The notes beneath the pieces were generated by a model. That model was given only the letters and a program-made list of their open reading frames with translations, was not told the DNA's origin and did not search any database. A stretch of DNA of 64,000 nt, from NCBI GenBank assembly GCA_009783465.1, contig WRDM01000002.1:42097-106096 (forward strand). Direction: 5' to 3'. How positions within the stretch are numbered: the first letter of the stretch is position 1; each line of letters begins with the position of its first letter. The translations under genes and the position numbers were made by a program. Source of the stretch: Phycisphaerae bacterium (GTDB taxonomy: Bacteria > Planctomycetota > Phycisphaerae > SM23-33). Below, one piece after another: positions 1 through 64,000 of the stretch.

Positions 1-1
1 G

Positions 2-211
2 CAGGCGGGGACGGCCTCGGCGCTGCTGGGCCTCTTCCAGTACACCCTCGGTGGACTCGCGAGCGGCCTGCTGGGCGTCATCGTCCGCCATGACACCGCC
101 GGCAAGTCCGCCCTGCCGATGGCCGCCATCATCGCCGCGTGCAGCGTCATCGGCTGCGCGGTGTACCTTGTCGGACGACGACGAAAACCGATTAACTCGT
201 TGATTCGTTAA
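2..211 (+). CDS. MFS-type transporter, C-terminal fragment (5' end outside window)
   Basis: Open frame from window edge reads ...LGLFQYTLGGLASGLLGVIVRHDTAGKSALPMAAIIAACSVIGCAVYLVGRRRKPINSLIR*; hydrophobic helices typical of Bcr/CflA-type MFS C-termini. Confidence 0.4.
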   Translation, partial: QAGTASALLGLFQYTLGGLASGLLGVIVRHDTAGKSALPMAAIIAACSVIGCAVYLVGRRRKPINSLIR

Positions 212-340
212 CTCGTTGATTCGTGTTAACGAGTTAACGAAAAGAGCTCCACGAACATACGGCATGGTTTTACCGTCGAGCAAACGAAAATCAGGATCCC
301 GTTTTTCTTCTCTGTGTCTCTGTGGTAAAAAACATATGAC

Positions 341-2011
341 ATGACCACACACAACCTCCAACCCGCGCAGCCGCTCATCCGACGGTATCTGTTCGTCGCG
401 GCGGCCCTGTTGGCGGCGGTGTATCTGGCGTGCGTCAACGACCGCTGGTATCCCACGCCCGACAGCGCCTTGTACGCCGGGCTGGGGCGGTCGCTCGCTG
501 AAGGGCGAGGGTACGTTTTCAATGGCGGAGTGGACAACACGGCCACGCCGGGCCTGCCGGCCGTCATCGCGGCGGCGAGGCTCCTCACCGGCGGCGACGG
601 CTGGTGGGTGTGCAACCTGTTCATCACGGCCTCGGGGTTGGCGGCGTTATTATTCATCCGGGCCGTGTTGCGAAAACTGCTGCCCGCCGACGCGCCGCCA
701 TCGACGAACTCATCGCCGTCACCGCCCACATCACGGCTGCGTGACACGATCGCATCGCCCGCGCCGGCGAAGTTATCCGCCGACCTGGCCACGCTCATGT
801 TGGCCGGCTCGTTTTTGTTCTTCGAGCATTCACACTATATTTTGACGGACATTCCGCTGGTCGCGTTGGCGTGGGCTGCCTTCTATGCCGCGCTGCGGGC
901 GACGCACGGACACTGGGCCTGGCTGGCGCTGGCGGCAGGGCTGTGCGTCGCCGCCATGACGATCCGCGCGCCGATGGCGCCGTTCCTGGCCTTGCTGGCA
1001 ACGGGACTGGTGTTTGGACCGTTGCCATGCGGAACGGTCCGCGAGGGCAAGTTATCCTCGCCACACGCGGGCGAGACGCCCGCGCCACGGGCCGCGCGAC
1101 GGCGTTGGTTCGCCGCCGCCGTGCTGCTGGCGGCCACCGCGGTCCCCTTCGCGTTCTGGTACGTTCTCGGCCGGTCGATCGGACCGCTGCCGTACGTCGA
1201 ATCCGCCACACGGCTGACGGCGGGATTTTTCGCGCGGGCAGGCGAGGCCGCGTGGGCGCAGGCCGGCGTCATGTCCACATTCCTCATCGGCGTGCCCAGC
1301 ATGCCCTGGCTGGGCTTGATCCTCTGGCCGGTGGCGCTGTTGGGATTGGCCGTGCTGTGGCGGGGCTTTTGGCTGGGCCTGCTCGTGCTCGTGCCGTACA
1401 CGCTGTTCATCGCCGTCATCCGCGCTGCCGACAACCCCGATCGCTTCATGCTGCCGGTGGCGCCGCTGGTCTACCTCGGCCTGACGCAGGGCGTCTGGTC
1501 GCTCGCGACGGCGGCAGGCCACCTCGCGCGAGCACGGCGAAATCACGCGACCACCGCGTTGATCGTCCTGACGGCGGCCATCCTGCTCGCCAACGTCGTG
1601 CCGATGGCCAAGTTGGTGCATCGCATGGCCTGGCTGGCCCACACCGACCGCTACGACACCGAGGCCAAACGCGGCTTCGTGGGCGAACACAAAAAAGTCG
1701 CCGAACTCCTCGCCAACGAACTGCCCGAAGAAGGCCGATTCCTCGCCACCCGAGGCCCCGGACGAATCGTGTACTATTACAGCGGGCGACCCTTCATCAC
1801 CCCGCCGCCGCACAATGACGGCCTGCTCGGCCCCGACGATGCACAGGAACTCTGGAACCTCTGGCAGGCAAACCCCGACATCCGCATCGCCGTCCTGCCC
1901 TGGCATGGCCGACAAAAACACCACGCCTACACCGCCCGCATCGCCGAACTCTTCGCCAGCGAACGCGAACTCCACCGCGGCAACACGATGATCGTCTTCG
2001 AACGTCGCTAA
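341..2011 (+). CDS. GT39/ArnT-like membrane glycosyltransferase (PMT_2 family), carries short in-frame palindromic element
   Basis: 556 aa polytopic membrane protein; N-terminal DSALYAGLGRSLAEGRGYVF motif typical of ArnT/PMT family; peptide PHAGETPAPR at nt ~1062-1092 encoded by a copy of the in-frame palindromic element. Confidence 0.55.
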   Translation: MTTHNLQPAQPLIRRYLFVAAALLAAVYLACVNDRWYPTPDSALYAGLGRSLAEGRGYVFNGGVDNTATPGLPAVIAAARLLTGGDGWWVCNLFITASGLAALLFIRAVLRKLLPADAPPSTNSSPSPPTSRLRDTIASPAPAKLSADLATLMLAGSFLFFEHSHYILTDIPLVALAWAAFYAALRATHGHWAWLALAAGLCVAAMTIRAPMAPFLALLATGLVFGPLPCGTVREGKLSSPHAGETPAPRAARRRWFAAAVLLAATAVPFAFWYVLGRSIGPLPYVESATRLTAGFFARAGEAAWAQAGVMSTFLIGVPSMPWLGLILWPVALLGLAVLWRGFWLGLLVLVPYTLFIAVIRAADNPDRFMLPVAPLVYLGLTQGVWSLATAAGHLARARRNHATTALIVLTAAILLANVVPMAKLVHRMAWLAHTDRYDTEAKRGFVGEHKKVAELLANELPEEGRFLATRGPGRIVYYYSGRPFITPPPHNDGLLGPDDAQELWNLWQANPDIRIAVLPWHGRQKHHAYTARIAELFASERELHRGNTMIVFERR

Positions 2012-3312
2012 CGCTGCGACGCCCGCAGCGCCTGGTCCAGATCGGCCTGGAGGTCGGAGAGGTCTTCGATGCCCACGCAGAGACGGATGAATTCCGGGCT
2101 GACGCCGGCGGCGCGTTGCTGGGCGTCGGTCATCTGCTGATGCGTCGTGCTGGCGGGATGGATCACCAGCGTGCGGGCGTCGCCGATGTTCGCCATGTGC
2201 GAGGCCAGTTTCACGCTCTTGATGAACCGCACGCCGGCGTCGCGGCCGCCCTTGATGCCGAACCCGACGATCCCGCCCGCGCCGTTGGGCAGGTATTTTT
2301 TGGCCAACTCATGATGCGAATGGCCGGCTAGCCCCGCGTAGTTGACCCACTCGACGGCCTCGTGCGATTGTAAAAATTTCGCCAGCGCCAGCGAATTTTC
2401 GCAGTGCCTCGGCATGCGGACGTGGAGCGTCTCCAGCCCGAGCAGGAACAAAAAGGCCGCGAACGGACTCATGCACGCGCCGGTGTCGTACAGCCAGTGC
2501 GTCCGCGCGTGCGAAACAAACGCCGCCCGGCCAAACGCTTCGACGAACGTCAACCCGTTGTACGCCTTGTCCGGCTCGGTAAACCGCGGCCAGCGGCCCG
2601 GTTCCTTCGACCAGTCGAACGCGCCGCCGTCGACGACCGCGCCGCCGACGTGCACACCATGGCCGCCGATGTATTTCGTCGTGGAATAGACCACGATGTC
2701 CGCGCCGTGCTCGATCGACCGAAGCAGCCAGGGCGTCGTCACCGTGTTGTCCACGATCAGCGGCACGCCGATGGCATGCGCGGCGTCGGCGGTCTTGCGA
2801 AAGTCCGGCACGTCGCCTCGGGGGTTGCCCATGCTCTCGACATAGACGCATCGCGTGTTGGCGTCGGCGAGCGCGGCGATCTCCTCGGGCCGATCGGCGT
2901 TGTAAAAACGGGCCTCGACGCCCAGCGTTTTCAGCGTGCGCGAGAACAGCATGTACGTGCCTCCGTAGAGGCTCGCGGACGTGATGATATTCTGTCCGGC
3001 CTGCGCGAGGGTCATCACGGCGGCGATGATGGCCGCCTGTCCGCTGGCCAACGCCACCGCGCCCACGCCGCCGTCCAGCGCGGCCAGCCGCTTCTCCAGC
3101 ACCTCATTCGTGGGATTCGTCAGTCGCGAATAAATGTTGCCCGGCTGCTTGAGCGCGTACAAATTGGCCGCGTCCTCGGGCGAGGCAAAATGATACGCCG
3201 CCGTCGCGTAAATCGGCACGGCGGAACAGTGCGTGGGCGAATCATCCGCCTGCCCCGCGTGCAACGCCAGCGTGCCCAACCGATACGCGTTGTTGTCGTT
3301 TGTGTTTGTCAT
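2008..3312 (-). CDS. metY: O-acetylhomoserine sulfhydrylase (PLP-dependent Cys/Met metabolism enzyme)
   Basis: ORF 2008..3543 trimmed to Met at MTNTNDNNAYRLGTLALHAG; strong MetY-family similarity (GNPRGDV, STTKYIGGHG PLP-lysine motif). Confidence 0.85.
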   Translation of the reverse strand: MTNTNDNNAYRLGTLALHAGQADDSPTHCSAVPIYATAAYHFASPEDAANLYALKQPGNIYSRLTNPTNEVLEKRLAALDGGVGAVALASGQAAIIAAVMTLAQAGQNIITSASLYGGTYMLFSRTLKTLGVEARFYNADRPEEIAALADANTRCVYVESMGNPRGDVPDFRKTADAAHAIGVPLIVDNTVTTPWLLRSIEHGADIVVYSTTKYIGGHGVHVGGAVVDGGAFDWSKEPGRWPRFTEPDKAYNGLTFVEAFGRAAFVSHARTHWLYDTGACMSPFAAFLFLLGLETLHVRMPRHCENSLALAKFLQSHEAVEWVNYAGLAGHSHHELAKKYLPNGAGGIVGFGIKGGRDAGVRFIKSVKLASHMANIGDARTLVIHPASTTHQQMTDAQQRAAGVSPEFIRLCVGIEDLSDLQADLDQALRASQR

Positions 3313-3619
3313 ACCGACTCCTTGCCTGTGTCCTGCACCAGTGTATGACAAATCGAACATGGATGCCATGTGTCGATCAAAAAGATGTCCGGCATGGATA
3401 TGGTTGAGACGACACGCCTGTCCCTCTGTGCACGTCGTCCGCCGCCGACTTCGCATGACGGTGCGCCCTCGGCCAGTGGCGTCAGGCACGAGGAAAGAAT
3501 CCTGAAAACGCCCGAAACCCAGGGCTCGCGGCGTACCGCTCACCCTGGGCTATAGCAGACGCCGCTGACGCGGCTGTGGCCCGGCCCTTCTGCGCCAGAC
3601 CGGGAAGGCCAACCAACTC

Positions 3620-3934: not shown

Positions 3935-4055
3935 GCCTCCTCCGAGAAATACGGGCGTCCGCCGCCTCGCTTCTCCTTGACCCCGTTTGCGACATTATAG
4001 GCCGATGTTCTTCCATTTCTTATGACACAAATGAGAGACCCGTTCGAGGGAAATA

Positions 4056-4197
4056 AGCCAATAGCCAATAGCCAGCAGGTATGGAAAGACAAGGACAAAA
4101 AGGCAAGGAAAGCGGGAACAGGCACATGAGTAACAACATTCAGAATCGTGTGATTTGCAACAAAACCCGCCATACCTTCTGGCTACTGGCTACTGGC
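4056..4197 (+). repeat. operon-hairpin element (OPH family, 'gccagtagccaatagccagtagg...ccatacctactggctactggc'), forward orientation
   Basis: ~28-bp inverted terminal arms flanking ~90-nt conserved core (..acagcgggaaca..atcagaatcgtgtga..); same family as 11024, 12571, 13745, 27752, 28293, 55981. Confidence 0.8.
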
Positions 4198-4358
4198 GAA
4201 ATGATTCCTTCGATCAGATCGCCCGCCCGCGCCACGAGAAATGAAAGCCCTTGTTTTTCCTCTGCCCCATTTGCGAATCCCGTTCGCCGTTCCTACACTG
4301 AGGCCGAGGGCGTCGGCGTGGGGTCGGCGTCGCGTGGGGCGTCTTCGCGGGGGCGGTC

Positions 4359-7300
4359 ATGCTGGGGTTGTCGCGTCGAGCGTTTCTTCAAGTCACCGCC
4401 GGCTCCGCGGGCGCCGTGGCCGCCTCCATGGGCCTGCGACAGGCGGGAAAACTCATCCCCTACGTCGTGCCCCCCGAGGAAATAAAACCAGGCCAGTGGG
4501 CGACCTTCGCGACCACCTGCCGCGAGTGCCCCGCCGGCTGCGGGCTGCACGCGCGGCACCGCGACGGCCGGGCCATCAAAGCCGAAGGCAACCCGCAAAG
4601 CCCCGTCAACCGCGGCGCGCTGTGCGCCCGCGGGCAATCCGCCGTGCAAGGCCTGTACGACCCCGACCGGCTGCGACACCCGCTGCGACGCGTCCACCGC
4701 GACGCGACGCTCGAACACGCCGCCTGGGCCGATGCCATTGCTGCCGTCATCGAAATCCTGAAAAAACCACAGAAAAACGTCCACATTGTCAGCGACTTGC
4801 AAACCGGCGCACTGGCGGAAGTGCAAACCGCCTTCGCCGCACTCCACGGCAGCGAGCCCGTGCTGTACTTCGAGCCGTGCAACTACGAACCGCTTCGCGA
4901 CGCCCACCGCATCGCCCTGGGCCTGGACGCAATCCCGCGATACCGCATCGAGCGAAGCCGCTACATTCTCAGCCTCGGCGCGGACTTCCTCGAAACGTGG
5001 ATCTCGCCCGTGGAGTTCGCTCGCGGCTTCGCAAACGCTCGCGAAATCCGCCCCGCCGAATACGGCCGCGATCCGTACGAGTCGCCGCCGCGCAGGCCCG
5101 GAAAATTGGTATACGTCGGGCCTCGACTGTCCATGACGGCCGCCAACGCGGATGAGTTTTTCCAATGCCAAAGCGGTGCCGAAGGCTGGATTGCCCTGGC
5201 GATTCTTCACGAACTGCTCGCCGCGGATTGGGTGCAAAACCAACGCGACGCGATCGCGGCAGCCGCGAAAATAGTGGGCGCCGAGCACGCGCTCAATCAC
5301 GCGGGGTTAGAAAAATCCACCGTCGCCCGCCTGGCCCACGAGTTCGCCGCCGCGCGCGGCGCGGTCGCGCTGGCGTGTCCGACCGCCGCCACGGGCGATG
5401 CGGCACGATGGGCTTCGCTGGCGGCCATCCTTCTCAACGTCGCCGTCGGCAGCGGCGGCAACGATGCGGAGAACAACGGCGTCATCGTCGATTTCTCGCA
5501 GCCGCACGCGCTGAGCGCCGCCGCCAAACTACGCGAAGTCGCCGATCGGTTGGCCTCGCTGGGGCCAAACGACGTCGTGATTCTGCACAACGCCAACGTG
5601 GCGTTCGCCCTGCCGGCAGCGGCGGCGGGATTACAAAACGCCGCCGCCGTGATTTATCTCGGCCCGCAGCTCGATGAAACCGCCGAACTCGCCGACGTCG
5701 TGCTGCCCACCGATTCGCCTCTGGAAGCCTGGGGCGACTACGAACCGTACGCGGGCATGCACAGCCTGATTCAGCCGACGACGGCCCGGCTGTACAATTC
5801 GCGAAACGCAGGCGACATCCTGCTGGCGCTCGCGCAGGCGACGAACCGCCCGCTCACTCCGCCGTACGCGTCAAGCCCGCCGGAAGATTTCCTGCACTGG
5901 CTGCGGCTGCGATGGCAACATTTTCACCCGCAACACGACTGGCAGGACGCCCTCCGCGCCGGCGGGGAGTTTGACGAGACGCCAGGTGGCGAGATGCCCG
6001 CTTCACGTGACGCGGGCGTCTCGCCCGCGTTGTGTGTTCCACTGTCCTGGCCTATGGAATACAGTAAATCTGTTCCACAGCACAGCGCGGGCAAGATGCC
6101 CGCGAGACACGAGGGCGAGACGCCCTCGTCACGTGAAGCAGACACCCGCGCCGCAGACGACCATTTCCATCTCTGGCTGTGGCCTTCGGTGTTCCTCTTC
6201 GACGGCCGGTCAGCCAACAGGCCGTGGTTGCAGGAGGCGCCCGATCCGACGACCCAGGCCACCTGGAGCAGTTGGGCGGACATGCATCCCGACCGTGCCG
6301 CCGCGCTGGGCCTGCGCGGCGGCGACGCCATTCGCATCCAACTGTACGACGCCACGGACAAATCCGCCGCCATCACCCTGCCCGTGCGAATCACCGCCGA
6401 CGTCGCCGACGACACCCTCGCCGTCGTCCTGGGCCAGGGGCACTGGGCGATGGGCAACACCGCCCGCAACCTCGGCGCCAACGCCTTCCGCCTCCGCCCG
6501 ATTCAACCGACGCGCGACAACTTCCCCGCCGTACGCGTCCGCCGTGCCGCCGGGGCCAATCCATTGTCCTATCATCCAACATCCGCCATGCAGGATCAGC
6601 ATCGCCGCGAACTGCTCCAGTGGACATCACTCGCGCAGGCGTCGGCCGACCCGCCCCCGCCGCGCGACGACGCGTTTCGCATGCCGCTGCCGGAAGGCTA
6701 CCGCACCGACGCCTACGCACCGCACGAACACCGCAACCACCGCTGGGCGATGGCGATCGACCTGCACCGATGCGTCGGCTGTGGCGCGTGCGCGGTCGCG
6801 TGCTACGCGGAGAACAACATCCCCGTCGTCGGGCCCGCCGAAGTGGATCGAGGCCGCGAAATGGCCTGGCTGAAAATCGTCCCCTACCGCTCGCCCCACG
6901 ACGCGGGCCGGCTGGGCTTCCTGCCGATGCTCTGCCAGCACTGCGACGCCGCCCCGTGCGAACCGGTCTGCCCCGTCTACGCGTCCATGCACACCGAGGA
7001 AGGCCTCAACGCCCAAGTCTACAACCGCTGCATCGGCACGCGGTACTGCAACAACAACTGTCCCTACAAGGCCCGGCGGTTCAACTGGTTCGACCGCGAC
7101 TGGCCGGAGTCGTCGCGATGGCAGCACAATCCCGAAGTCACCGTTCGCGAGCGCGGCGTGATGGAAAAATGCACCTTCTGCATTCAGCGAATCCGCCACG
7201 CCCAGCACCGCGCCCTCCGCGAAGACAGGCCGCTGCGAGACGGCGAAATCCAGCCCGCGTGCGTCGCCACCTGCCCGACCTCGGCCATGATCTTCGGCGA

Positions 7301-7427: not shown

Positions 7428-9382
7428 CCTACGCACAAATCGACGATGCCGTTCTCGGCGCGATGGCGCCGGCGAGGCGGCGGTATGTCGTCATCATGCT
7501 CGTGCTGGGCGGGCTTGTGGCGATGTTTTTCACCCTATGGATTCACCAGGCCCGCACGGGCATGGGCGTGGCCGGGATCAACTCGCCGGTCGGCTGGGGC
7601 GTGTACATCGCGTCGTTTGTGTTCTGGGTGGGCATCGCGCACAGCGGGACGTTGATTTCCGCCATCCTGCACCTGGTCCGCGCGAAATGGCGCACCGCGG
7701 TGGCCAGGTCCGCCGAGGCCATGACGATTTTCGCCGTCATGACCGCGGGGCTGTTCCCGCTGATCCACCTCGGTCGGGTGGGCGTGTTTTATTACATTCT
7801 GCCGTACCCGACCACGCGGCAGATTTACCCGAATTTCCTCAGCCCGCTGGTGTGGGACGTCGTGGCCATCTCGACCTACTTCACGGTCAGCCTGGTCTTC
7901 TGGTATGTCGGCCTGCTGCCGGATCTGGCCAGCGCCCGCGACCGCTGGCACCGCCTGGTCGGCCCCCATCACCCGCGCACGCGATTCTATCACGCCCTGG
8001 CCATGGGATGGTCCGGCAGCGGCAACCAGTGGCGGCATCACGGGCGGGCATACCTGTTCTTCGCCGCCCTGGCCACGCCATTGGTCATCAGCGTGCATTC
8101 GGTCGTCTCGTGGGATTTCGCGATGTCCATCCTGCCGGGATGGCACACGACGATGTTTCCGCCGTACTTCGTCGCCGGGGCCATTCACTCGGGACTGGCC
8201 ATGGTTATCGTGCTCCTGCTGCCGATGCGGAAACTTCTGCGGCTGGAAAGCCTCGTCACCGACTGGCACTTCGACTGCCTGGCCAAGACCCTCCTCGTCA
8301 CCACGTGCATCATGGGCTATTCGTATATCATCGAGCCGTTCACCGCCTGGTACAGCGGCAACGTGATCGAGCGGCAATTCATCCACTGGCGGGCGTTCGG
8401 CGACACCTGGCTGACGCCGGGCTACTGGTCGATGTGGCTGCTGAACGTCATCGTTCCGCTGGCGTTTTTCGTGCCCCGCCTCCGCCGCAGTCCCACCGCG
8501 CTGATGCTCATTTCCCTTGGCATCACGATCGGCATGTGGCTGGAGCGCGGCGTGATCGTGCCGGCAAGCCTCGCCCACGACTTCATGCCCCACGCCTGGG
8601 GCCAATACGTCCCCAGGCCAATCGAATGGGGAATTCTCCTGGGCTCGTTCGGCTGGTTTTTCTTCTGGTTTTTCGGCTTCGCGAAATTTTTACCGACCAT
8701 CGCGGCGAACGAGGTGAAAGAAGAAACGCATCGCGATGGCTTGCCGGCACCACGTGACGCGGGCGTCTCGCCCGCGTTGTGCGCTCCATGTGACTGGCTA
8801 CTGGAAAACGCCAAGTCGTCTTCAACATCGGACGCGGGCAAGATGCCCGCGAGACACGAGGACGAGACCCCCGCGTCACGTTACGTCTGGGGAACATTCG
8901 ACACGCCCGCCGCGTTGATCGCCGCCGTGCGGCAACTGCGTGACGACGGCGTGACGGGCATGGAGACGTACACGCCGTTTCGGTTACAGGAGGTGGAAAA
9001 ACTGCTCGGACGCGGCCCCAGCCCGGTGCGGCTGTGGACGTTGGCGGGCGCGTTGGCGGGCGCGGCGGGCGGATTCGCGTTGGCGATCGGCCTGGCGGCG
9101 ATTAACGGGCTTGTCGTCGGCGGGCGGATTTCCTACGCCGTCATCGTGCCGTACTGCGTGATCGCTTTCGAAGGCACGATCCTGCTGGGCGTGCTGGCGA
9201 ACGTGACGGGATTGTTTTTTCATGGCCGCCTCGGCAGCGCGAGGCCGTTGCCGCGCGGATACGTCCGGCGGATTTCGGAAGACCGTTTCGGCCTGCTCAT
9301 CCCGTGTGATCGCGAGCAGGTCGGCGCGATGCGGGAGCGGCTGAGCACCCTGTGCGCGGAGGCGATCCATGTCGTCGAATGA
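7415..9382 (+). CDS. actC: Alternative complex III ActC (NrfD-like polytopic subunit) fused in-frame to ActD via a palindromic element linker
   Basis: Starts MERLTYAQIDDAVLGAMAPARRRYVV (ATG overlapping actB stop); ~10 TM NrfD/PsrC-like body; after element (8749-8883) reading frame continues into YVWGTFDTPAALIAAVRQLRDDGV... (ActD/DUF3341-like) with C-terminal TM; no stop or restart between. Confidence 0.7.
   Translation: MERLTYAQIDDAVLGAMAPARRRYVVIMLVLGGLVAMFFTLWIHQARTGMGVAGINSPVGWGVYIASFVFWVGIAHSGTLISAILHLVRAKWRTAVARSAEAMTIFAVMTAGLFPLIHLGRVGVFYYILPYPTTRQIYPNFLSPLVWDVVAISTYFTVSLVFWYVGLLPDLASARDRWHRLVGPHHPRTRFYHALAMGWSGSGNQWRHHGRAYLFFAALATPLVISVHSVVSWDFAMSILPGWHTTMFPPYFVAGAIHSGLAMVIVLLLPMRKLLRLESLVTDWHFDCLAKTLLVTTCIMGYSYIIEPFTAWYSGNVIERQFIHWRAFGDTWLTPGYWSMWLLNVIVPLAFFVPRLRRSPTALMLISLGITIGMWLERGVIVPASLAHDFMPHAWGQYVPRPIEWGILLGSFGWFFFWFFGFAKFLPTIAANEVKEETHRDGLPAPRDAGVSPALCAPCDWLLENAKSSSTSDAGKMPARHEDETPASRYVWGTFDTPAALIAAVRQLRDDGVTGMETYTPFRLQEVEKLLGRGPSPVRLWTLAGALAGAAGGFALAIGLAAINGLVVGGRISYAVIVPYCVIAFEGTILLGVLANVTGLFFHGRLGSARPLPRGYVRRISEDRFGLLIPCDREQVGAMRERLSTLCAEAIHVVE
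8749..8883 (+). repeat. in-frame palindromic element (IPE family) at actC/actD junction
   Basis: CCACGTGACGCGGGCGTCTCGCCCGCGTTGTG...GACGCGGGCAAGATGCCCGCGAGACACGAGGACGAGACCCCCGCGTCACGTT; encodes PRDAGVSPALCAPCDWLLENAKSSSTSDAGKMPARHEDETPASR. Confidence 0.85.
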
Positions 9383-11017: not shown

Positions 11018-11023
11018 GGAAGA

Positions 11024-11172
11024 AGCCAGTAGCCAATAGCCAGTAGGTATGGAACGGCATCGGCAAAAAACAACGACAGCGGGAACAGATAACGATGCGG
11101 CCAAAATCAGAATCGTGTGTTTTGCAACTGGCTTCGCCATACCTACTGGCTACTGGCTATTGGCTACTGGCT
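11024..11172 (+). repeat. operon-hairpin element (OPH family), forward orientation, between actA and ccoN
   Basis: agccagtagccaatagccagtaggtatggaacggcatcggcaaaaaacaacgacagcgggaacagataacgatgcggccaaaatcagaatcgtgtgttttgcaactggcttcgccatacctactggctactggctattggctactggct. Confidence 0.85.
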
Positions 11173-11192
11173 AAAACCGTGCCCTGTAAACA

Positions 11193-12593: not shown

Positions 12594-12720
12594 GTAAGGC
12601 ACGACATTGGCGAAACGGCAGTGACAGCGGGAACGGATACAAAAATGGCAACGGCCAGGATCGTATGACTGGCGACAGGCTTCGCCATACCTACTGGCTA
12701 TTGGCTATTGGCTACTGGCT
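12571..12720 (+). repeat. operon-hairpin element (OPH family), forward orientation, overlapping ccoN stop codon
   Basis: agccagtagccaatagccagtaggtaaggcacgacattggcgaaacggcagtgacagcgggaacgg...ggatcgtatgactggcgacaggcttcgccatacctactggctattggctattggctactggct. Confidence 0.85.
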
Positions 12721-12738
12721 TTTTCCAAAAGGATTCCC

Positions 12739-13889: not shown

Positions 13890-13907
13890 TTCTTCAGGAG
13901 GCAACGA

Positions 13908-14090: not shown

Positions 14091-14142
14091 CAATCAGGAC
14101 AATCGCATGTGCATGCCTTATTCCACACAGGATTCGCATTTC

Positions 14143-48690: not shown

Positions 48691-48751
48691 GTATCCCTCT
48701 CCGCGCCCTCTGTGTCTTGTGATAAGATAGTTTTCCCGAAAGGAGCGGCGA

Positions 48752-49768: not shown

Positions 49769-49804
49769 CGGACTATCGCTTCATAACGGCCCTTTTTCTC
49801 AAAA

Positions 49805-51098: not shown

Positions 51099-51698
51099 AA
51101 AACCGTTTCACGCTGGCTCGCCTTTTTACGGTGTAGGACATTGGAGACAATCGATCGGCCTCCCCGGTCTCGCGATGGAGTGCCGGTACAACGCCGTAAA
51201 CCACACACGCATAACGCCACAGTCTGGGCTTTCGTCATTGATTCGGAATTCGGGCTTCGTCATTCGGGTTTTAGACTCCACCGACAAACGTGACGTACCC
51301 CCTGAGGACGTGACCGTTCGATTTTCTTCCTTGCTAGGCCGCTTGTTGAGATGGATAATAAACCCATTGAGCATTCGTTTCGAAGGCCACCAACAGGAGA
51401 CGACAACGCGAGTATAATGTAGTGACATAACATCACGCCGACAACATCGGCGTCACGACTCGGGCATTTTACCTGTGAGTCTGTTCGGAGATTTTCGGAC
51501 AGGCTCGGAAACCGCCAAATTTCATTGTCAAAAGATGACCGAGAACCGGGACGCGCTCCCCTAGGGGGCGTGGCTCGTTCTCGCGTTTTTGACGGGCCTT
51601 GGCGGGCCTCAGGTAAGCGCGTGGCGGGCGGCCCCCGATTTTTTTCCCTCCTCCCTCCCTACACGCAACACATTTTGTGAACGGATTGGATACGACTT

Positions 51699-54442: not shown

Positions 54443-54480
54443 ATCCTGTTTGTGGGTGGAAAATCGTGGCGGAAATCCAA

Positions 54481-54620
54481 ATGACGAAGCCCGAATGTCG
54501 AATCAATGACCAAAACCCAATGACGAATGGTTTTTCGTCTGCCTTATCGTGCGGCGGGCAAGTCAATCGCCATTGGGGCTTCGTCATTGTTTCGGAATTC
54601 GGGTTTCGTCATTCGGGCTT
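54481..54620. repeat. inverted repeat of 'ttcgtcattcggg' elements in divergent sigma-factor/M16 promoter region
   Basis: atgacgaagcccgaatgtcgaatcaatgaccaaaacccaatgacgaatgg ... gggcttcgtcattgtttcggaattcgggtttcgtcattcgggctt; single-arm copy at 51229-51270. Confidence 0.7.
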
Positions 54621-54716
54621 GGCGATGGTTCCGCCCACAAACGTGATGCGTACTCTCACGTCCTCACGTCACGAGAATCGAAAGACCCTGTTGCACATCC
54701 GTCCCCGCCGCATACA

Positions 54717-55991
54717 ATGGGCCGATTCCGCGTTACTATCGAGGTGACCGTGACAGAACGATTTCATATTCACGAGCTTCCCAACGGCCTGACGTTGCTG
54801 GGCCAGCCGATGGACGGCGTGTCGTCGGCGTCGATGTCGGTCCTGATCCCCATGGGCGCCGCCCACGACCCCGCCGACGCTGCCGGGGCCGCCGCCGTCA
54901 CGGCGGAGTGGCTCATCCGAGGCGCCGGCGACCGCAACAGCCGACAACTCAACGACGCCCTCGACGCGCTCGGCTGCCAACACGACGAAAGCGCCCAGGG
55001 CGAACACCTGCACGTCTCCACCGCGCAACTGGGCCGAAACCTCCCCGATATCCTCGCCATCGTCGCGGACATGCTCCGCAGGCCGAGGCTGGAAGACGAC
55101 ACCTTCGACCCCTGCCGGCAACTCATCCTCCAGGATCTCGAAACCCTCGAGGACGAGCCCGCCCGCAAGTGCAACATCCTGCTTCGCGAACGATTTTACC
55201 CGCACCCGCTGGGGCGAAACGTGCTCGGCCACGCCGACTGCCTCGCCGTCATGCAGCCGGCCGACGTGCGTCGCCACGCCCGTGCCGCCATGACGCCCGC
55301 CAAGGCCATCCTCGCCGTCGCCGGCAACATCGACTGGGACCGCTTCGTCAGCCTCGCCACGCAACTTTTCGGCGATTGGCAGGCCGCCCCCGCCAAGCCC
55401 GTCGACATCGCCGCCCAGCCACGCGGCGAAACACATATTCAAAAGGACACCGCCCAGACGCACATCGCGATGGCCCACGCCAGCGTCACCGTGCGACACC
55501 CGATGTACTACGCAGCCCGCGTCGCCGAAATCGTCCTCTCCGGAGGCATGAGCAGCCGGCTGTTCACCGAAGTCCGCGAAAAGCGAGGCCTTGTCTACGG
55601 TGTCTCCAGCCGATACCACAGCCTCAAGGACTACGCGGGCATGTTCACCTACGCCGGCACGCGCCCGGAGGTCGCCCAAACCACCTTCGACGTGACCGTG
55701 GGCGAAATCCGACGACTCGCCGAAGGCGTCACCGCCGACGAGATGGCCCGCGCCCGCACGCAGCTCAAAGCCGCCCTCATCATGCAGGGCGAATCCACCG
55801 GAGCCCGCGCCGGCGCCATCGCCGCCGACTACTACCACCTCGGCCGACTGCGAAGCCTCGACGAAATCGCCGCCGCCATCGAACACGTCACCGCCGACGA
55901 AGTCGCCGAATACCAAAAAGCGTTCCCGCCAGACAACCTCACGGTTCTCGTGCTCGGACCCGAGCCGGTGGAGATAGTCACAAGCCACTAG
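54717..55991 (+). CDS. M16 (pitrilysin) family peptidase-like protein, zinc-site motif absent (probable non-catalytic partner)
   Basis: M16 fold similarity across both halves but HxxEH replaced (…GAAHDPADAAG…); followed by active paralog. Confidence 0.6.
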   Translation: MGRFRVTIEVTVTERFHIHELPNGLTLLGQPMDGVSSASMSVLIPMGAAHDPADAAGAAAVTAEWLIRGAGDRNSRQLNDALDALGCQHDESAQGEHLHVSTAQLGRNLPDILAIVADMLRRPRLEDDTFDPCRQLILQDLETLEDEPARKCNILLRERFYPHPLGRNVLGHADCLAVMQPADVRRHARAAMTPAKAILAVAGNIDWDRFVSLATQLFGDWQAAPAKPVDIAAQPRGETHIQKDTAQTHIAMAHASVTVRHPMYYAARVAEIVLSGGMSSRLFTEVREKRGLVYGVSSRYHSLKDYAGMFTYAGTRPEVAQTTFDVTVGEIRRLAEGVTADEMARARTQLKAALIMQGESTGARAGAIAADYYHLGRLRSLDEIAAAIEHVTADEVAEYQKAFPPDNLTVLVLGPEPVEIVTSH

Positions 55992-56133
55992 CCACAAGAC
56001 ACCAGGTAAGGAACGACGACGGCAAAAAAACAACAACAGCGGGCCAAAATGGACAATGTGACGACGATCAGGATCGTATGACTCACAACAAAACTGGCCA
56101 TACCTTGTGGCTAGTGGCTGGTGGCTTGTGGCT
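55981..56133 (+). repeat. operon-hairpin element (OPH family, 'ccacaagccactagccac' variant), forward orientation, between the two M16 genes
   Basis: caagccactagccacaagacaccaggtaaggaacgacgacggcaaaaaaacaacaacagcgggccaaaatgg...atcaggatcgtatgactcacaacaaaactggccataccttgtggctagtggctggtggcttgtggctc. Confidence 0.8.
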
Positions 56134-56166
56134 CTTGCCCACCAGACGTTGTGTAAGGAAAAACCA

Positions 56167-57393
56167 ATGAATTTCCACGAAATCACGCTCGATAACGGTT
56201 TGCGGATCATCGCGGAGGTCAACCCGGCCGCCCAGAGCATGGCCGCGGGGTTTTTCGTCCGCACAGGGTCGCGCGACGAAACGCCCGGCGTCGCGGGCGT
56301 CAGCCATTTCCTCGAACACATGATGTTCAAGGGCACCGCCAAACGATCCGCCGCCGACGTCAACCTCGAGTTCGACAACATGGGCGCCAACTACAACGCC
56401 TTCACCTCCGAGGAATCCACCGTCTACTACGGCGCCGTCCTGCCCGAATTCCAGGACCGACTCATGGACCTGCTGTGCGACATGCTTCGGCCGGCCCTGC
56501 GGCAAGAGGACTTCGACGTCGAAAAAAACGTCATCCTCGAAGAAATCGCCCTCTACGACGATCAGCCGAGATTCCGCGTATACGACGGCCTGATGGGCCA
56601 CTTCTTCCACAGCCATCCGCTGGGACAAAGCATCCTCGGCTCGCGGCAGTCGATCGGTGAACTTCAGCGCGATCAGATGAAAGCGTACTTCGATGCCCGC
56701 TACGCGGCGGACAACATCACCGTCGTCACGGTAGGCCACGTCGACCTCGACGCGTTCGTGAAAAAAGTCCACGCCCTGTGCAGCCCGTGGAAGCCCAGCC
56801 AGGCCGGCCGAGCGACGCCGCCCCAACCGTCGCCGGTGGGCGTGAAAATCCTCCACGACGAAAAAATCGTCCGCGAACACCTCGGCCTGATGAGCCCCGC
56901 CCCCACCGCGCAGGCCGACAACATCCACGCCGCGCAACTGCTCGCCGCCATCCTCGGCGACAGCACGGGAAGCCGACTCTACTACGCCCTCGTCGAACCC
57001 GCCCTCGTCGACGAAGCCTCCATGACCTACGACGCCCTCGACCAGGCCGGCGGATTCATGACCTTCCTCTCCACCGACCCCGACCGCGCCGCACGCGTCC
57101 TCGAAATCGCCCACACGGAATTCCGCCGATTCATGGCCGAGGGCCCCACCGACGCCGAATTGGCCGCCGCCAAAAACAAACTCGCCTCCGCCGCCACGCT
57201 CAAAGGCGAACTCCCCATGGGACGGCTCACCGCGGTCGGATTCGACTGGGTATACCGCCACGAATACCTGCCGCTCCCCCAACGCATCGAACACATGTTC
57301 GCCGTGACAGGCCAACAAATCCACGAACTGGCCAACACCTTCGACCTGACAAAAACCGCCTGCCTGGCCCTGGGCCCGCTGGAGAACATCTAG
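56167..57393 (+). CDS. M16 (pitrilysin) family zinc peptidase, catalytic subunit
   Basis: Intact inverted zinc motif HFLEHMMFKGT; M16 N- and C-domains. Confidence 0.7.
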   Translation: MNFHEITLDNGLRIIAEVNPAAQSMAAGFFVRTGSRDETPGVAGVSHFLEHMMFKGTAKRSAADVNLEFDNMGANYNAFTSEESTVYYGAVLPEFQDRLMDLLCDMLRPALRQEDFDVEKNVILEEIALYDDQPRFRVYDGLMGHFFHSHPLGQSILGSRQSIGELQRDQMKAYFDARYAADNITVVTVGHVDLDAFVKKVHALCSPWKPSQAGRATPPQPSPVGVKILHDEKIVREHLGLMSPAPTAQADNIHAAQLLAAILGDSTGSRLYYALVEPALVDEASMTYDALDQAGGFMTFLSTDPDRAARVLEIAHTEFRRFMAEGPTDAELAAAKNKLASAATLKGELPMGRLTAVGFDWVYRHEYLPLPQRIEHMFAVTGQQIHELANTFDLTKTACLALGPLENI

Positions 57394-57555
57394 AGCGGTT
57401 CCAGCTTGCATGGTGACTGCTGGCCGTCGCCGAGGACGAGCCAGGCCAGGAGGCCGAAGCAGCCGATGCATCGCATCGGCGATGCAGGCCGACGCCGCCT
57501 GGCGACGCCGCAGGCAGGCCAGCAGGCACCATGCAAGCTGGAACCGCTCTAGGGT

Positions 57556-58299: not shown

Positions 58300-58333
58300 G
58301 TCAATCTTTCGAGTATACGAATAACATTTCGCG

Positions 58334-58423
58334 ATGGCTTTGCCTGTTTGCGCTGTAGAACGGTGTGAGCGAAAGAATATTCTTTCGCTCACACCGTTCT
58401 ACAGCGCAAACAGGCAAAGCCAT
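58334..58423. repeat. palindrome (short BPAL variant: atggctttgcctgtttgcgctgtagaacggtgtgagcgaaagaatattctttcgctcacaccgttctacagcgcaaacaggcaaagccat)
   Basis: Perfect 40-bp arms. Confidence 0.85.
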
Positions 58424-58430
58424 ATCCGTG

Positions 58431-61160: not shown

Positions 61161-61408
61161 CGGAAGTCTCCTTGAAATGTATTGTGCCGTGGGACCAAGT
61201 GTTTTTTACCACAGAGACACAGAGAAAAGAAGGTGCTCGTGCTTGTCGTGCTCGCAAAATGTTTTCAACGACTTGGCCTTTTTGTGTTGCAGGGTATTGA
61301 CAATAACAGGGTGCTCCCCGGTCTCGCGTGGACGTGTTGGCACGTAGCCGCGACGGGGCGGCCGACCATTGGGTATTCATGCAACAAGGCTACCGTCTGA
61401 AATCCAGC

Positions 61409-61897: not shown

Positions 61898-62040
61898 ACG
61901 AACTCCTTGGTTCCCATTACTTTTTATATACGCCAATCGCGATACGGGCAACAGGGAAAGCGGGAAATCTCAGGCCATCGCCGTGTATTTACCCCAGGGC
62001 GAATGCGTGTGCATTTTCCAGTTTTCACGTATTTCTTCAT

Positions 62041-62170
62041 ATTCAGGCGCAATTGGCCACAGGCCCTGCCAGTTTGCGTTGCAAAACGGTATGAGCGACA
62101 GAACGCTTCGGTTGTCACAACGATCGACAACGCAAACTGGCAGGGCCTGTGGCCAATTGCGCCTGAATAT
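62041..62170. repeat. large palindrome (BPAL family)
   Basis: attcaggcgcaattggccacaggccctgccagtttgcgttgcaaaacgg...caacgcaaactggcagggcctgtggccaattgcgcctgaatat. Confidence 0.85.
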
Positions 62171-62256
62171 GAACCCCCTGTGAAAAGAGGGCTGTATATG
62201 CGTTTGTCGTGGCATTTCCTCTTGGCCAATGGCTGAAACGACGGTACCTTTTCGGC

Positions 62257-63345
62257 ATGCATGATGTCGTGATTGAACGCGTGCCTTTGTCGCGTCGGCG
62301 GGCAGCGATGAGGTTTCTCATCGGCGGTTCGTCGCGCGACACGTTTACGCGGATGCAGGCGGATTCGTTGTATCAGCGCACGCTGGGCGCCGACGCGGGC
62401 CTGGCGGAATTGTGGTGGGCGCGGCGAGGGCGGACGGAGCTGGCGGCGGCGATGATCTATCACAACGTCGGACGGACAGGCACGCTGTTGGCCAGTCCGG
62501 CGGCAGCGCCGGACGTCGACGCCCAACAACTCGCCCGCCTCGTCGGCGAACTGTCGCGGGCCGAAATCCGCCGCGGGTTGTCGATGATCCAGACACTCCT
62601 GCCGGCCGAGGCGAAACCCGAATTGGCCATGCTCGGCCAGGCGGGTTATCACCGCTTGGCCGAACTGGCGTACATGCAGCTGGCCGTGCCGCTGGCGTGT
62701 AACACGGGCATCTTGCCCATGAGTCGCATGGGCGTCCCGCCCATGCAAACGCCGCCAGCAGATCAGGCCTTCACATCACAGATAAATACAAACGAAGCGA
62801 TTATGCCATATGCCGAGCATGGGCGAGACGCCCATGCGGCTCACGGGCAAGATGCCCGTGCTACGTTTCACGTCGCAGCCGAGTTTCCCGCGCGGGAGCT
62901 GGAACAGATCATCCGCCGCAGTTACGAGGACTCGCGGGATTGTCCGGGACTGGCGGGCGTGCGCGATCTCGGCGACGTCGTCGCGGGGCATCGCGCCAGC
63001 GGGCTGTTCTCGCCCGAAAGCTGGTGGATCGTCCACGTCGAGGGCCAATCGGCAGGCTGCCTGCTGCTGAACGAATCCCTCACCGGGCAGGACGGCGAAA
63101 TCGTCTACCTCGGCGTGGCGCCGGAATTTCGCCGCCAGGGCATCGCACGGACCATGCTCGTCCAGGCGATTTCGCACGCACAGCGCGTCTCCTGGCGGCG
63201 GTTGACGCTGGCCGCCGACTCGTCAAACCTGCCTGCCGTCAGGCTTTACGAATCGTTCCAGTTCGCCGTCTCGCACCGTCGCGACGCCTGGATTTTCACG
63301 CGGCGCGACGTGGCTGAGGGTTTCCCCTCAAAAAACCGCTGTTAA
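62257..63345 (+). CDS. GNAT-family N-acetyltransferase with in-frame palindromic element in N-terminal half
   Basis: C-terminal GNAT core (VYLGVAPEFRRQGIARTML, acetyl-CoA Q/RxxGxA motif); insert CNTGILPMSRMGVPPMQTPPADQAFTSQINTNEAIMPYAEHGRDAHAAHGQDARATFHVA at 62705-62872. Confidence 0.55.
   Translation: MHDVVIERVPLSRRRAAMRFLIGGSSRDTFTRMQADSLYQRTLGADAGLAELWWARRGRTELAAAMIYHNVGRTGTLLASPAAAPDVDAQQLARLVGELSRAEIRRGLSMIQTLLPAEAKPELAMLGQAGYHRLAELAYMQLAVPLACNTGILPMSRMGVPPMQTPPADQAFTSQINTNEAIMPYAEHGRDAHAAHGQDARATFHVAAEFPARELEQIIRRSYEDSRDCPGLAGVRDLGDVVAGHRASGLFSPESWWIVHVEGQSAGCLLLNESLTGQDGEIVYLGVAPEFRRQGIARTMLVQAISHAQRVSWRRLTLAADSSNLPAVRLYESFQFAVSHRRDAWIFTRRDVAEGFPSKNRC
62705..62872 (+). repeat. in-frame palindromic element (IPE family, catgggcg/cacgggca hairpin-unit variant with AT-rich centre) inside GNAT gene
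   Basis: gggcatcttgcccatgagtcgcatgggcgtcccgcccatgc...(AT-rich 45 nt)...gagcatgggcgagacgcccatgcggctcacgggcaagatgcccgtgctacgtttcacg. Confidence 0.8.
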
Positions 63346-63350
63346 TCCCC

Positions 63351-63359
63351 TGTGGATAG
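63351..63359. promoter_or_regulatory. DnaA box (tgtggatag = cTATCCACA, one mismatch)
   Basis: ~210 nt upstream of dnaA start. Confidence 0.4.
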
Positions 63360-63407
63360 AAGTTTTTTTTTCGCGGTAAGTTCCCGCATGCATCGGCACT
63401 TGAATAC

Positions 63408-63416
63408 TGTGGATAA
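63408..63416. promoter_or_regulatory. DnaA box, perfect consensus (tgtggataa = TTATCCACA)
   Basis: ~150 nt upstream of dnaA start; pairs with box at 63351. Confidence 0.55.
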
Positions 63417-63567
63417 TCGTAAGCCAATTCACCCCCTTGCAGATCGGGGAATTCCGCAGTAAAACCTCATCCACTTCGGCAGCAAGCCGCTGTCGAAGTT
63501 CGTGTGGCATGAGGCCGCGCGGCGTTGGCTGTCATGACGGATCGCCCCGTTCGACAAGGACCGAAAC

Positions 63568-64000
63568 ATGAACAGTGTGACGCCCGTGGTGCGCGCCAAA
63601 ACCAAACCCGACAGGCCTGCCGACGCGAACGGCTCCTCGCCCGTCTGCGAAATCTCGCCCAACCTGCAAGCCGTGCTGTCGGCTTTGGAAAAACGTCTCG
63701 GCACGCAGAAATTCAACGCGTGGTTCCGGCACGGGCTTCGGCTGACGCTGGAAGGCGACGTGCTCCGCGTGTTCGCCTCGAACGCGTTCGCGGCGAACTG
63801 GATCGACACGCACTACTCTCGCGATTTGTCGGCCGTCGCGACGGAACAACTTGCCTTGGCGGTGACGGTTTCGGTGGCGGTCGATCACGGCCTGACGGGC
63901 GACCTGCGGAAGCGGCAACGCGATTCGCAGGCGACGGCGGTAGACATGGCCGTGCAGGGGCGCGCCCGGTCGCGGCAGGCGGGCGAAGCATCGCCGTTGC
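63568..64000 (+). CDS. dnaA: chromosomal replication initiator DnaA, N-terminal part (runs off window)
   Basis: MNSVTPVVRAKTKPD...LQAVLSALEKRLGTQKFNAWFRHGLRLTLEGDVLRVFASNAFAANWIDTHYSRDL matches DnaA domain I; open to window end; not in ORF track because no stop. Confidence 0.75.
   Translation, partial: MNSVTPVVRAKTKPDRPADANGSSPVCEISPNLQAVLSALEKRLGTQKFNAWFRHGLRLTLEGDVLRVFASNAFAANWIDTHYSRDLSAVATEQLALAVTVSVAVDHGLTGDLRKRQRDSQATAVDMAVQGRARSRQAGEASPL

Follow-up and report, generated by a model that had tools for sequence, protein, structure and literature searches.

Introduction

The MITEs (miniature inverted-repeat transposable elements) of bacteria, among them Correia/NEMIS, ERIC, RUP, BOX, SMAG, and Nezha, are 100–200 nt long, carry terminal inverted repeats, and form RNA hairpins; they insert beside or within operons, where orientation-dependent effects are possible. 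Other systems built of small repeats include the short tandemly repeated repetitive (STRR) sequences of cyanobacteria, which consist of heptamers, the Rickettsia palindromic elements (RPEs), which lie in frame within essential genes, and the Foldback (FB) transposons of eukaryotes, which are kilobase-scale and transposase-linked. The intervening sequence (IVS) in the 23S rRNA of Coxiella has a 28-bp stem of terminal inverted repeats, tandem heptamers whose number varies between strains, and an S23p open reading frame (ORF), and is excised by RNase III (PMC4990558). Repetitive extragenic palindromes (REPs) tagged with GTAG or CGTC have been reported from the Planctomycetes/PVC group (PMC3733652), and the TAACTGA heptamers of a Beggiatoaceae genome form 169 direct sets against one inverted set (PMC4679880). 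Here, we describe a dense population of hairpin-forming repeats in a 64,000-nt stretch of DNA from a Phycisphaerae bacterium (GCA_009783465.1, contig WRDM01000002.1, positions 42,097 to 106,096), referred to below as the window.

The reading that we favour, with modest confidence, is that these repeats are small non-autonomous hairpins of a foldback or MITE-like kind, that at least two groups of them (families A and F/I) are miniatures of IVS-like elements with an S23p gene, and that they are co-transcribed and probably cut by RNase III. The lineage would carry a large population of such elements, in the main class of which arms of 3–6 tandem 7–8-nt units, in inverted orientation, enclose a short loop or cargo; the arms and two further layers (O and P) wrap other modules into onion-like composites. 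Families A and F/I, at least, would be internally deleted derivatives of larger elements that hold an S23p (PF05635) gene between the same arms. Elements would enter and leave spacers, including those of essential operons, over a time like that in which relatives diverged to ~80% identity. By analogy with IVSs, they would be part of the host operon's transcript and form long stem-loops there, which RNase III would cut as it does in rRNA; polycistronic mRNAs may be split in this way, and such cleavage would account for the tolerance of elements in essential operons. Slippage and arm-to-arm homogenization may create new unit families, and an S23p-like protein is the only candidate seen for a spreading factor.

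The elements belong in the company of REPs, bacterial interspersed mosaic elements (BIMEs), MITEs, and IVSs, but they depart in defining features from REP doublet hairpins (REPINs) and from MITEs derived from insertion sequences (ISs), and they do not reside in rRNA. No account of elements of this kind in Planctomycetes or Phycisphaerae turned up in full-text literature searches. Relative to the literature searched, what appears to be new is a single inverted-array architecture that yields many sequence families across a bacterial order, the presence of these elements across roughly half of all intergenic DNA, even between the genes of the dcw and respiratory operons, and a structural link to elements with an S23p gene, a lead on the origin of IVSs that is possibly important and is drawn from three loci.

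Hairpin elements occupy about half of the intergenic DNA

Gene calls and Pfam hits were taken from the public record of a 104-kb metagenome contig (ENA ERZ27257304, k141_871801); the calls cover the whole window and 9.7 kb upstream, and 84 kb of the contig were read overall. The window has a G+C content of 58–68% and contains a cluster for alternative complex III (ACIII) and a cbb3 oxidase at 4.4–13.7 kb, a minus-strand dcw cluster bounded by mraZ (31.3 kb) and murG (17.8 kb), PEP-CTERM paralogues, and housekeeping genes. Its MraY is identical to an NCBI protein from a ‘Phycisphaerae bacterium’ metagenome-assembled genome. In MurE, species representatives of GTDB reach 47–48% identity at best, and useful relatives came from a protein database rather than from a GTDB genome scan. 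Those found via MraY are R1 (locus L087, JGI 3300010167; 81% identity) and R2 (L089, from another ENA sample; 78% identity); the loci L146 and L151 share 81–86% nucleotide identity with the window. Related DNA amounting to 0.62 Mb (4485 ORF segments) was scanned, tandem arrays were found with Tandem Repeats Finder (TRF), and 80 dcw-containing loci of other bacteria (1.38 Mb) were used as controls. Two Logan contigs match the window at 100% identity and independent JGI samples carry the same repeat families, and an assembly artefact can therefore be rejected.

An initial annotation, made from the sequence of the window, had described near-saturation of its intergenic DNA by palindromic repeats that fill nearly every gap larger than 80 nt. 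All of the motifs that it listed were recovered at the same coordinates in gap sequences, by repeat search, and by self-BLAST, and a curated element is present in 32 of the 37 gaps of at least 80 nt. ‘Saturation’ is nevertheless an overstatement, because five such gaps hold no element (31353–31685, 37713–38048, 39264–39530, 46847–47033, and 63346–63537) and about half of the intergenic bases are covered; the element-free gaps are mostly promoter regions and spacers between PEP-CTERM paralogues. Of the intergenic bases, 52% lie in curated elements, or 48% by an automatic measure that combines repeats with inverted repeats; the curated elements take up 7.9% of the window, to which intragenic copies of family K add 1.6%. 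Gaps inside the dcw cluster (mraZ to murG, 17.8–31.4 kb) and the ACIII–cbb3 cluster are occupied, as had been noted. Among the 39 gaps that measure 60 nt or more, 24 have folds with z < −3 relative to dinucleotide shuffles, some reaching z = −28.

Comparison with the control loci bears out the view that this density and diversity are unusual. Local inverted-repeat structures occur at 43.8 per 100 kb in the window and cover 5.0% of it, versus 7.5 per 100 kb and 0.45% in the controls, which makes them ∼6-fold commoner with ∼11-fold more DNA covered. The excess is larger for inverted pairs of 6–10-nt arrays (15.6 per 100 kb in the window versus 1.15 in the controls, 13-fold), with 10 such pairs in the window and 106 in the 0.6 Mb of related DNA.

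Three architectures underlie the sequence families

The initial count of at least nine families is fair as a count of sequence families, for which we obtain ∼11, but these families are not independent and reduce to three architectures: inverted-array hairpins, nested plain palindromes, and REP-like doublets of GC hairpins. Their interdependence is evident from the one-base relation between F and I, the core common to the B types, the single architecture of the first class, and the interchangeability of the wrapping layers.

The first class consists of the array-armed hairpins A, C, D, E, F/I, and G, whose arms are made of 2–7 tandem 7–8-nt units in inverted orientation. Family A has AGCCANT units, the junctions AGGTAWGG and CCATACCT, and an asymmetric ∼85-nt core. 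The unit is GTTAACNN in C, CACAGAGR (adjoining GGTAAAAA) in D, GACAAGY in E, CTGTTAGR in F, and CTGTAGG in I, while G has a mixture of TTCGTCATT and CGGRATT units. Units of F each have one nucleotide more than those of I, throughout both arms, and the two families have similar loops. The second class comprises the long, often nested plain palindromes B, O, P, and H: B1, B2, and B3 have the common core TTTGCGYTGTAGAACGTT, the O layer is CAGGGCAAACGCATGT...ACATGCGTTTGCCCTG, the P layer is GGTAAAATCG..GTTCGAGGGAAC together with its complement, and H is a compound palindrome. The third class is K, a doublet of short GC hairpins located in frame inside nine genes. D is found wrapped round B3, O round B1, round F, or round the outermost B1 stem alone, and P round A or C; in related contigs, A-type arms surround protein-coding genes or a B2 palindrome. 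As wrappers of other modules, O, P, and the array arms are interchangeable.

This architecture is only partly matched by the described systems. Like bacterial MITEs, the elements are 100–200 nt long with terminal inverted repeats that would fold into RNA hairpins, and lie beside or within operons; unlike them, they have arms of variable-number 7–8-nt units and many arm families with one architecture, no parent IS was seen, and the candidate parent carries an S23p gene. With STRR sequences and TAACTGA heptamers they have in common lineage-specific, intergenic tandem heptamers that often stand just upstream of start codons, but here the arrays form inverted pairs that fold into hairpins round a loop or cargo, rather than direct arrays. 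Long inverted arms of short tandem sub-repeats, variable arm length, and variable central cargo are reminiscent of FB transposons, a likeness confined to architecture given the eukaryotic, kilobase-scale, transposase-linked nature of the latter.

The right-end pattern of family A matched at least 90 stretches of JGI metagenomes, and of at least 165 profile hits to the family overall, over 140 fall within 0.5 Mb of these contigs. The span between the inner arm units is 126–132 nt in most copies. The arms are near-invariant and far better conserved than the core, the cores of the window copies being 63–76% identical to each other. On the right arm, CCATACCT is near-invariant (for example, at 11141–11148) and conserves an ATG on the opposite strand in ∼62–66 of 68 copies, while its pairing partner on the left arm is variable (AGGTA[T/A/C]GG). 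A small antisense ORF in the core (MAKPVxxHTIL...) was rejected as a gene, since a quarter of the copies stop within 17 codons and the frames shift. RNAalifold applied to the core returned the outer stem and two small, poorly supported helices, with no conserved inner RNA structure.

Other functional assignments were considered for the element families and set aside. Arrays of A, C, F, and I have TAG or TAA in every unit and a period that is not a multiple of three; as a general all-frame stop signal, this property fails for D and for the GGAATGCG and CGAAATY arrays of relatives. Intrinsic terminators do not coincide with the main element stems: a terminator scan of 17–36.9 kb selects separate hairpins at 31632–31662 and 36360–36391, its hits within elements are short sub-hairpins alone (such as 23603–23616 in H), and D stems have a T-run on the 5′ side and an A-run on the 3′ side. 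The two separate hairpins, with a third at ∼37950–37990, are near-identical GC-hairpin and T-run terminators of PEP-CTERM paralogues, ordinary in kind and distinct from the repeat families. At the Rfam gathering score, the tRNA-Ser gene was the sole match and none was obtained for the repeat elements; perfect hairpins gave sub-threshold matches to eukaryotic miRNA-precursor models. ARAGORN calls a 98-nt tRNA-Ala(tgc) at 33234–33331 on the minus strand, overlapping B3/O palindromes, which Rfam does not support even at E = 0.5; the hairpins have probably given rise to a spurious call.

Elements are dispersed, gained, and lost

Families B, C, D, E, F, H, and K each recur at 6–34 further places. 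L146, L151, R1, and R2 all carry families of the window, and occupancy differs between them at orthologous gaps. The murF/mraY gap contains a C hairpin in the window (182 nt) and an A element in L146; it is filled by (GGAATGCG)n arrays in R2, and in R1 the two genes overlap. Between mraY and ftsW, the window (244 nt) and L146 have a D element round B3 where R1 has 28 nt. The gap between rsmH and a gene for an 81-aa protein holds an E hairpin in the window (162 nt) and measures 33 nt in R1 and 40 nt in R2, and the murE/murF gap, of 344 nt with an H element in the window, measures 54 nt in R1 and holds a C-wrapped palindrome in R2. Because orthologous gaps of relatives at 78–86% identity have different families or none, elements have been both gained and lost.

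A genome-specific mechanism of hairpin propagation had been suggested for these repeats. Propagation or turnover is supported by the presence of each family at unrelated loci and by the differing orthologous occupancy, but the elements are not confined to one genome. Related Phycisphaerae contigs from other samples contain families A, B, C, D, E, F, H, and K as well, and two more distant Phycisphaerales metagenome-assembled genomes (MAGs; L021 and L008), the top outliers among the controls, exhibit the same architecture with other unit sequences (such as CACGAAG, AACACAGATG, and CCTCTGCG).

Some sites are occupied in both the window and its relatives, namely A on both sides of ftsL, B2 between ftsW and murG, and D upstream of a Big_7 gene, where R1 has a full D palindrome and the window a half-arm. 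Same-site copies are 66–72% identical, compared with 81% between two neighbouring copies of R1; they are hence not each other's closest relatives, which implies independent insertion or local homogenization and led us to discard the view that they are vertical relics.

All seven canonical copies of A in the window are oriented alike relative to local transcription, and where the flanking genes are co-directional, 33 copies are sense and eight antisense across all data (p = 1e-4; 28 to 8 outside the window). Independent gene calls, which recovered 45 of 49 reference genes with no true false positive, were used for this count. In six of the seven window copies, the 3′ end lies 16–58 nt before the next start codon.

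Such regularities would be expected of cis-acting intercistronic RNA structures that are non-mobile and selected by the host for processing, stability, or translation coupling, and that resemble each other through a common binding protein or RNase. The orientation bias and the distance to the start codon fit this explanation, as do the conserved occupancy at some orthologous sites (A round ftsL, B2 in ftsW/murG, and D round B3) and the uniform length of A in spite of a ∼30% difference in the core. We nonetheless consider it unlikely, in that one orthologous gap can hold unrelated families or nothing in close relatives, many gaps contain nested or half elements, the same arms wrap unrelated cargo (a B2 palindrome, a gene for an intervening-sequence protein, or an ORF for a small membrane protein), and elements are found in convergent and divergent spacers as well.

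Structural kinship of families A and F/I with IVS-like elements

In relatives, array arms also enclose genes for the 23S-rRNA-intervening-sequence protein (S23p, a four-helix bundle; PF05635), termed IVP genes below. In L136, A-type arms flank a 138-aa ORF with a full-length PF05635 match (E = 7e-35), and in L163 F-type arms (35 nt, 97% complementary) flank a PF05635-like ORF, the only other one in the 0.62 Mb. In another Phycisphaerales bacterium (L214/L215), (TGGSAAC)n arms surround an IVP gene between gspE and gspF. All three IVP genes examined are therefore wrapped by arms, versus 10 of 344 ordinary genes with a flanking inverted repeat of at least 25 nt, and most of those 10 are host genes between two complete elements. 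Subterminal parts of the element in L136 can be aligned with the A core, and those of the element in L163 with the F/I loop; in the window, the loop of the F hairpin at 32880–33105 aligns with the right subterminal end of the L163 element. Miniatures that arose from a full element by internal deletion would be expected to show such a relation to it. The strand of the IVP ORF is the ‘sense’ strand of A, and the ORF is co-oriented with host genes, which would explain the orientation bias of that family. Protein-coding cargo of array arms in 0.6 Mb consists of two IVP genes and one small membrane ORF, and nothing else. The second kind of cargo is seen in L100 (3017–3593), where A-type arms surround a 577-nt insert with an 88-aa hydrophobic ORF on the opposite strand.

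The resemblance to the 23S rRNA IVSs of Coxiella and Leptospira extends to the long stem of terminal inverted repeats, the variable-number tandem heptamers in the arm region, the possible presence of a PF05635 ORF in the loop (here in the relatives L136, L163, and L214/L215, and not in the window), and the existence of ORF-less forms of 100–200 nt that are tolerated inside a transcribed unit. The elements differ from IVSs in their location in or between protein-coding genes and in operon spacers, with none in a 23S rRNA helix (9, 25, or 45), and in their tens to hundreds of copies, several arm families, and nesting.

If each family had instead arisen by deletion from an IS with matching terminal inverted repeats, and were mobilized in trans by the DDE (or other) transposase of that IS, encoded elsewhere in the genome, the elements would be classical MITEs. 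The defined length of A with its conserved terminal inverted repeats and variable cores is compatible with such an origin, as are gain and loss at orthologous sites, and the genome was inspected in part only. No transposase Pfam is present among the called genes of the 84 kb of contig, however, and in 0.6 Mb the cargo of longer elements with the same ends is either a PF05635 gene or an ORF for a small membrane protein, not a transposase gene. The flanks of 60 A copies have no common direct repeat that would mark a target-site duplication, about half of them being bordered by a further inverted layer (P). Terminal inverted repeats made of variable-number 7–8-nt units are also, to our knowledge, unusual for the ends of bacterial ISs. 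An origin as classical MITEs consequently appears rather improbable.

Several observations weigh against the foldback reading with its S23p parentage. The window and the 84 kb of its contig contain no IVP gene; the IVP link is provided by three loci, all in relatives, and extends to families A and F/I only; and no parent element was identified for C, D, E, G, B, O, P, or H. We know of no enzymatic or mobility function for S23p. A target-site duplication cannot be defined for A, because the array ends blur the element boundaries. The variable positions of mirrored arm units are 58% complementary versus 46% in shuffles, a difference too weak for the strict arm-to-arm compensation that we had considered; stems are accordingly 5-bp blocks with 2-nt mismatches, which is not an ideal RNase III substrate. 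Finally, the conserved sites (A round ftsL, B2, and D round B3) fit a host function equally well, and the uniform length of A hints at selection.

It is possible, although we are inclined to doubt it, that rRNA IVSs are the rRNA-resident members of a wider, hitherto unrecognized foldback class whose terminal inverted repeats are made of tandem 7–8-nt units and which carries an S23p (Avd-like) gene as its own factor. In that case, the spacers of Phycisphaerales would have been colonized by this class, hundreds of ORF-less miniatures in many arm families would constitute most of the intergenic hairpin load, and S23p would be the long-sought function behind the spread or maintenance of IVSs. The origin and spread of IVSs and the role of the S23p family have been open questions since about 1990; a lineage with numerous and diverse IVS-like elements and their miniatures would make both testable through comparative genomics and RNA mapping.

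Comparison with REP elements and local palindrome growth

REPs, BIMEs, and REPINs (PMC3116915, PMC3733652) are, like the elements of the window, abundant, mosaic, and clustered extragenic palindromes that occur within operons, with several families per genome. If the palindromes described here were REP doublets, they would have been spread by a REP-associated tyrosine transposase (RAYT; Y1 HUH). The B core (GCGCTGTAGAACG) does contain GTAG, as do some units of I and A, the GC hairpins of K are 7–8 bp long and form inverted doublets as in REPINs, and the tagged REPs of the Planctomycetes/PVC group (PMC3733652) offer a precedent. The halves of B and the array arms have no self-complementarity, however, and since these halves are not themselves hairpins, B and the array-armed families are not REP doublets; K alone has the 20–40-nt palindromes typical of REPs. 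The GTAG tag is confined to some units and is absent from AGCCAC-type A units, C, D, and E. An association with RAYT/TnpA genes, raised in the initial annotation, was not found: in addition to the lack of transposase Pfams in the 84 kb of contig, no IS200/IS608-like ORF was detected among the 4485 ORF segments of 0.62 Mb, a weak negative obtained with hand-typed search seeds. A REP/REPIN origin thus seems quite improbable.

Palindromes could also grow in situ, created and enlarged locally by slippage and template switching at stalled forks without any transposition. Arms differ in the number of their array units (2 to 7), the single base that distinguishes F from I in every unit of both arms represents a concerted change, and the O element at 48576–48700 resembles a central deletion of an O and B1 composite. 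As local growth cannot place near-identical sequences of 100–150 nt at dozens of unrelated loci, we give it very little credence as the source of the repeats; it probably adds variation to elements without explaining their spread.

Array-armed elements of the window

Five A copies are on the plus strand. The copy upstream of ActB (4049–4199) has the layout (AGCCANT)n-AGGTAWGG, ∼85-nt core, CCATACCT-(ANTGGCT)n and is wrapped by P-layer remnants at 4032–4215. Two flank ccoN: the first (11018–11173) lies in the cytochrome c/ccoN spacer and ends 20 nt before the ccoN start, and the second (12564–12722) lies between ccoN and ccoO/P, where its left array provides the ccoN stop codon. A further copy is downstream of ccoO/P (13746–13892), and the fifth (55975–56135) separates two M16 peptidase genes, its left array overlapping the stop codon of the first. 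The two minus-strand copies, in the ftsL/ftsI spacer (27712–27898, with a P-layer half, GACGGTAAAATCG..GTTCGAGGGAAC) and in the spacer between a LysM gene and ftsL (28291–28439), both have a same-site A in R1. A variant, A′ (25524–25716, strand not assigned), has (AGCCACN)n arms and their complement round a different, ∼140-nt core in the murE/ftsI spacer.

C hairpins, with (GTTAACNN)n arms, are located at 182–245, where they provide the stop codon of an MFS gene, in the mraY/murF spacer (21725–21846), in the murE/ftsI spacer (25305–25400), and, following a P-layer half, upstream of a rhamnosidase gene (42415–42530, with the GTTAAC array at 42458–42525). Inverted (GTTAACNN)n arrays round a ∼40-nt loop are also present in low-G+C IMG/VR contigs (L200 7660–7770 and L207 6350–6450), and 33 viral stretches match the GTTAAC octamer array pattern; common ancestry with family C and convergence are both compatible with this. 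Stop codons fall within arrays in the MFS gene (209–211, C), ccoN (12591–12593, A), and the first M16 gene (55989–55991, A), and the original 3′ ends of these genes have therefore seemingly been replaced by insertions. Gene callers are misled by arrays that provide stop codons and by K copies in frame; the elements also break metagenome assemblies and could serve as strain markers.

D is represented by a half-arm (CTCTGTGTCTCTGTGGTAAAAAA) at 300–335, by the composite round B3 in the ftsW/mraY spacer (20350–20569), in which 23-nt arms of 100% complementarity (20355–20377 and 20545–20567) enclose the B3 palindrome at 20422–20501, by a palindrome with 55-nt perfect arms (z = −28) that fills the whole spacer between convergent genes (41485–41606), and, upstream of the Big_7 gene (909 aa), by a half-arm joined with half of a B-type copy (61195–61305, the D part being 61195–61230). 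E hairpins, with (GACAAGY)n arms, occupy the spacer between rsmH and the gene for the 81-aa protein (30431–30580) and the GFO/hemE spacer (49804–49935). The F hairpin at 32880–33105 has its (CTGTTAGR)n arms at 32951–33056, the place of the CTAACAG array of the initial annotation, inside O-layer arms, and a degenerate I-type hairpin with (CYGWAGG)n arms is found at 15850–15945, with related copies in L086 (4585–4720 and 7075–7170). G, which corresponds to the TTCGTCATTCGGG repeat of the initial annotation, is present as a half (TTCGTCATT/CGGRATT units) at 51225–51275 and as a hairpin with 47-nt arms (83% complementary) in the divergent spacer between a sigma factor gene and an M16 gene (54473–54625), which has a 38-nt match of 92% in the Phycisphaerales MAG locus L021.

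Palindromes and hairpin doublets of the window

B1 palindromes are enclosed by O-layer arms in three elements: 14100–14314 (palindrome 14141–14262), 34615–34840 (palindrome 34670–34787, O arms 34621–34633 and 34824–34836), and 61990–62208 (palindrome 62036–62173). In a fourth (36150–36345), an O-left arm precedes a B1 palindrome at 36198–36345 that has 64-nt arms of 94% complementarity. B2 occurs in the murG/ftsW spacer (18995–19094), a site at which the copy of R1 is degraded, and at 58327–58426 with 45-nt perfect arms (z = −26). A B3 palindrome (33147–33248) with an O-right arm spans 33140–33290, and B-type half copies lie at 16660–16712 (GTTTTCAGCGGCTTGCCTCTTTGCGCTG...) and 51099–51150. The O-layer palindrome at 48576–48700 has at its centre only TTCAGGCGCCTGAA, the outermost stem of B1, and is either an ‘empty’ form or a central-deletion form. 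The CCCAGGGTGAGCGGTAC repeat noted earlier corresponds to H, seen as a single unit with a CCCAGGG...CCCTGGG sub-hairpin at 3506–3575 and as a 215-nt compound palindrome in the murF/murE spacer (23466–23697). Two single-copy palindromes are not families: L, of 162 nt, fills a convergent spacer (57390–57552), and J (15525–15622) adjoins the tRNA-Ser gene.

The REP-like GC hairpin doublet K, probably the IPE family of the initial annotation, is found in frame inside ActB at 5985–6139 and at 1041–1093, 8750–8881, 14871–15004, 22925–22951, 24364–24467, 35322–35456, 45910–45999, and 62699–62866. K doublets (CACGTGACGCGGGCGTCTCGCCCGCG...) interrupt ActB, ActC/D, MurF, MurE, a GT4 glycosyltransferase, RibD, and other genes in frame, adding peptides such as RDAGVSPA...GETPASR. 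At one site in MurE the insert amounts to 35 aa in the window and ∼59 aa in R1 and is absent in R2, and K units are intergenic in relatives at L087 8097–8150 and L151 3697–3819. In this family alone, in-frame palindromic repeats in essential genes (ActB, ActC/D, MurE, MurF, and RibD) recall RPEs, from which K differs in its unrelated sequences, phylum, and short GC hairpins.

Other features of the locus

The two A elements of the minus strand border a 123-aa ORF (27906–28277, minus strand) that begins with a membrane helix followed by a coiled-coil-like region; it is retained in R1 and R2, has no Pfam hit, and is most likely FtsL. Upstream of murE, a single-copy element of ∼115 nt with two hairpins and a U-rich tail (25400–25525, minus strand; L087 6203–6335; L089 6232–6345) is conserved in the three genomes, with four base pairs maintained through two-sided changes. 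The repeats around it differ from genome to genome and it has no Rfam match; it may be a leader or attenuator of murE.

Some repeats act at the protein level and are unrelated to the hairpin elements. These are GAA/GAG-rich repeats that encode an acidic tail at the 3′ end of a hemerythrin gene (16374–16630) and at least five 126-nt repeats inside a TPR gene (16800–17700). Five PEP-CTERM-type paralogues (31686–42293) have common 3′ coding ends (repeat family D11). MurF of R1 (L087 8151–10004) is 617 aa long, versus 501 aa in the window, has no Pfam hit on record, and may carry large in-frame insertions. In other Planctomycetota MAGs (L006, L009, L031, and L037), the MurE match spans 2.1–2.3 kb for a 1.5-kb gene, a surplus of ∼700 nt that hints at insertions inside murE in those lineages too.

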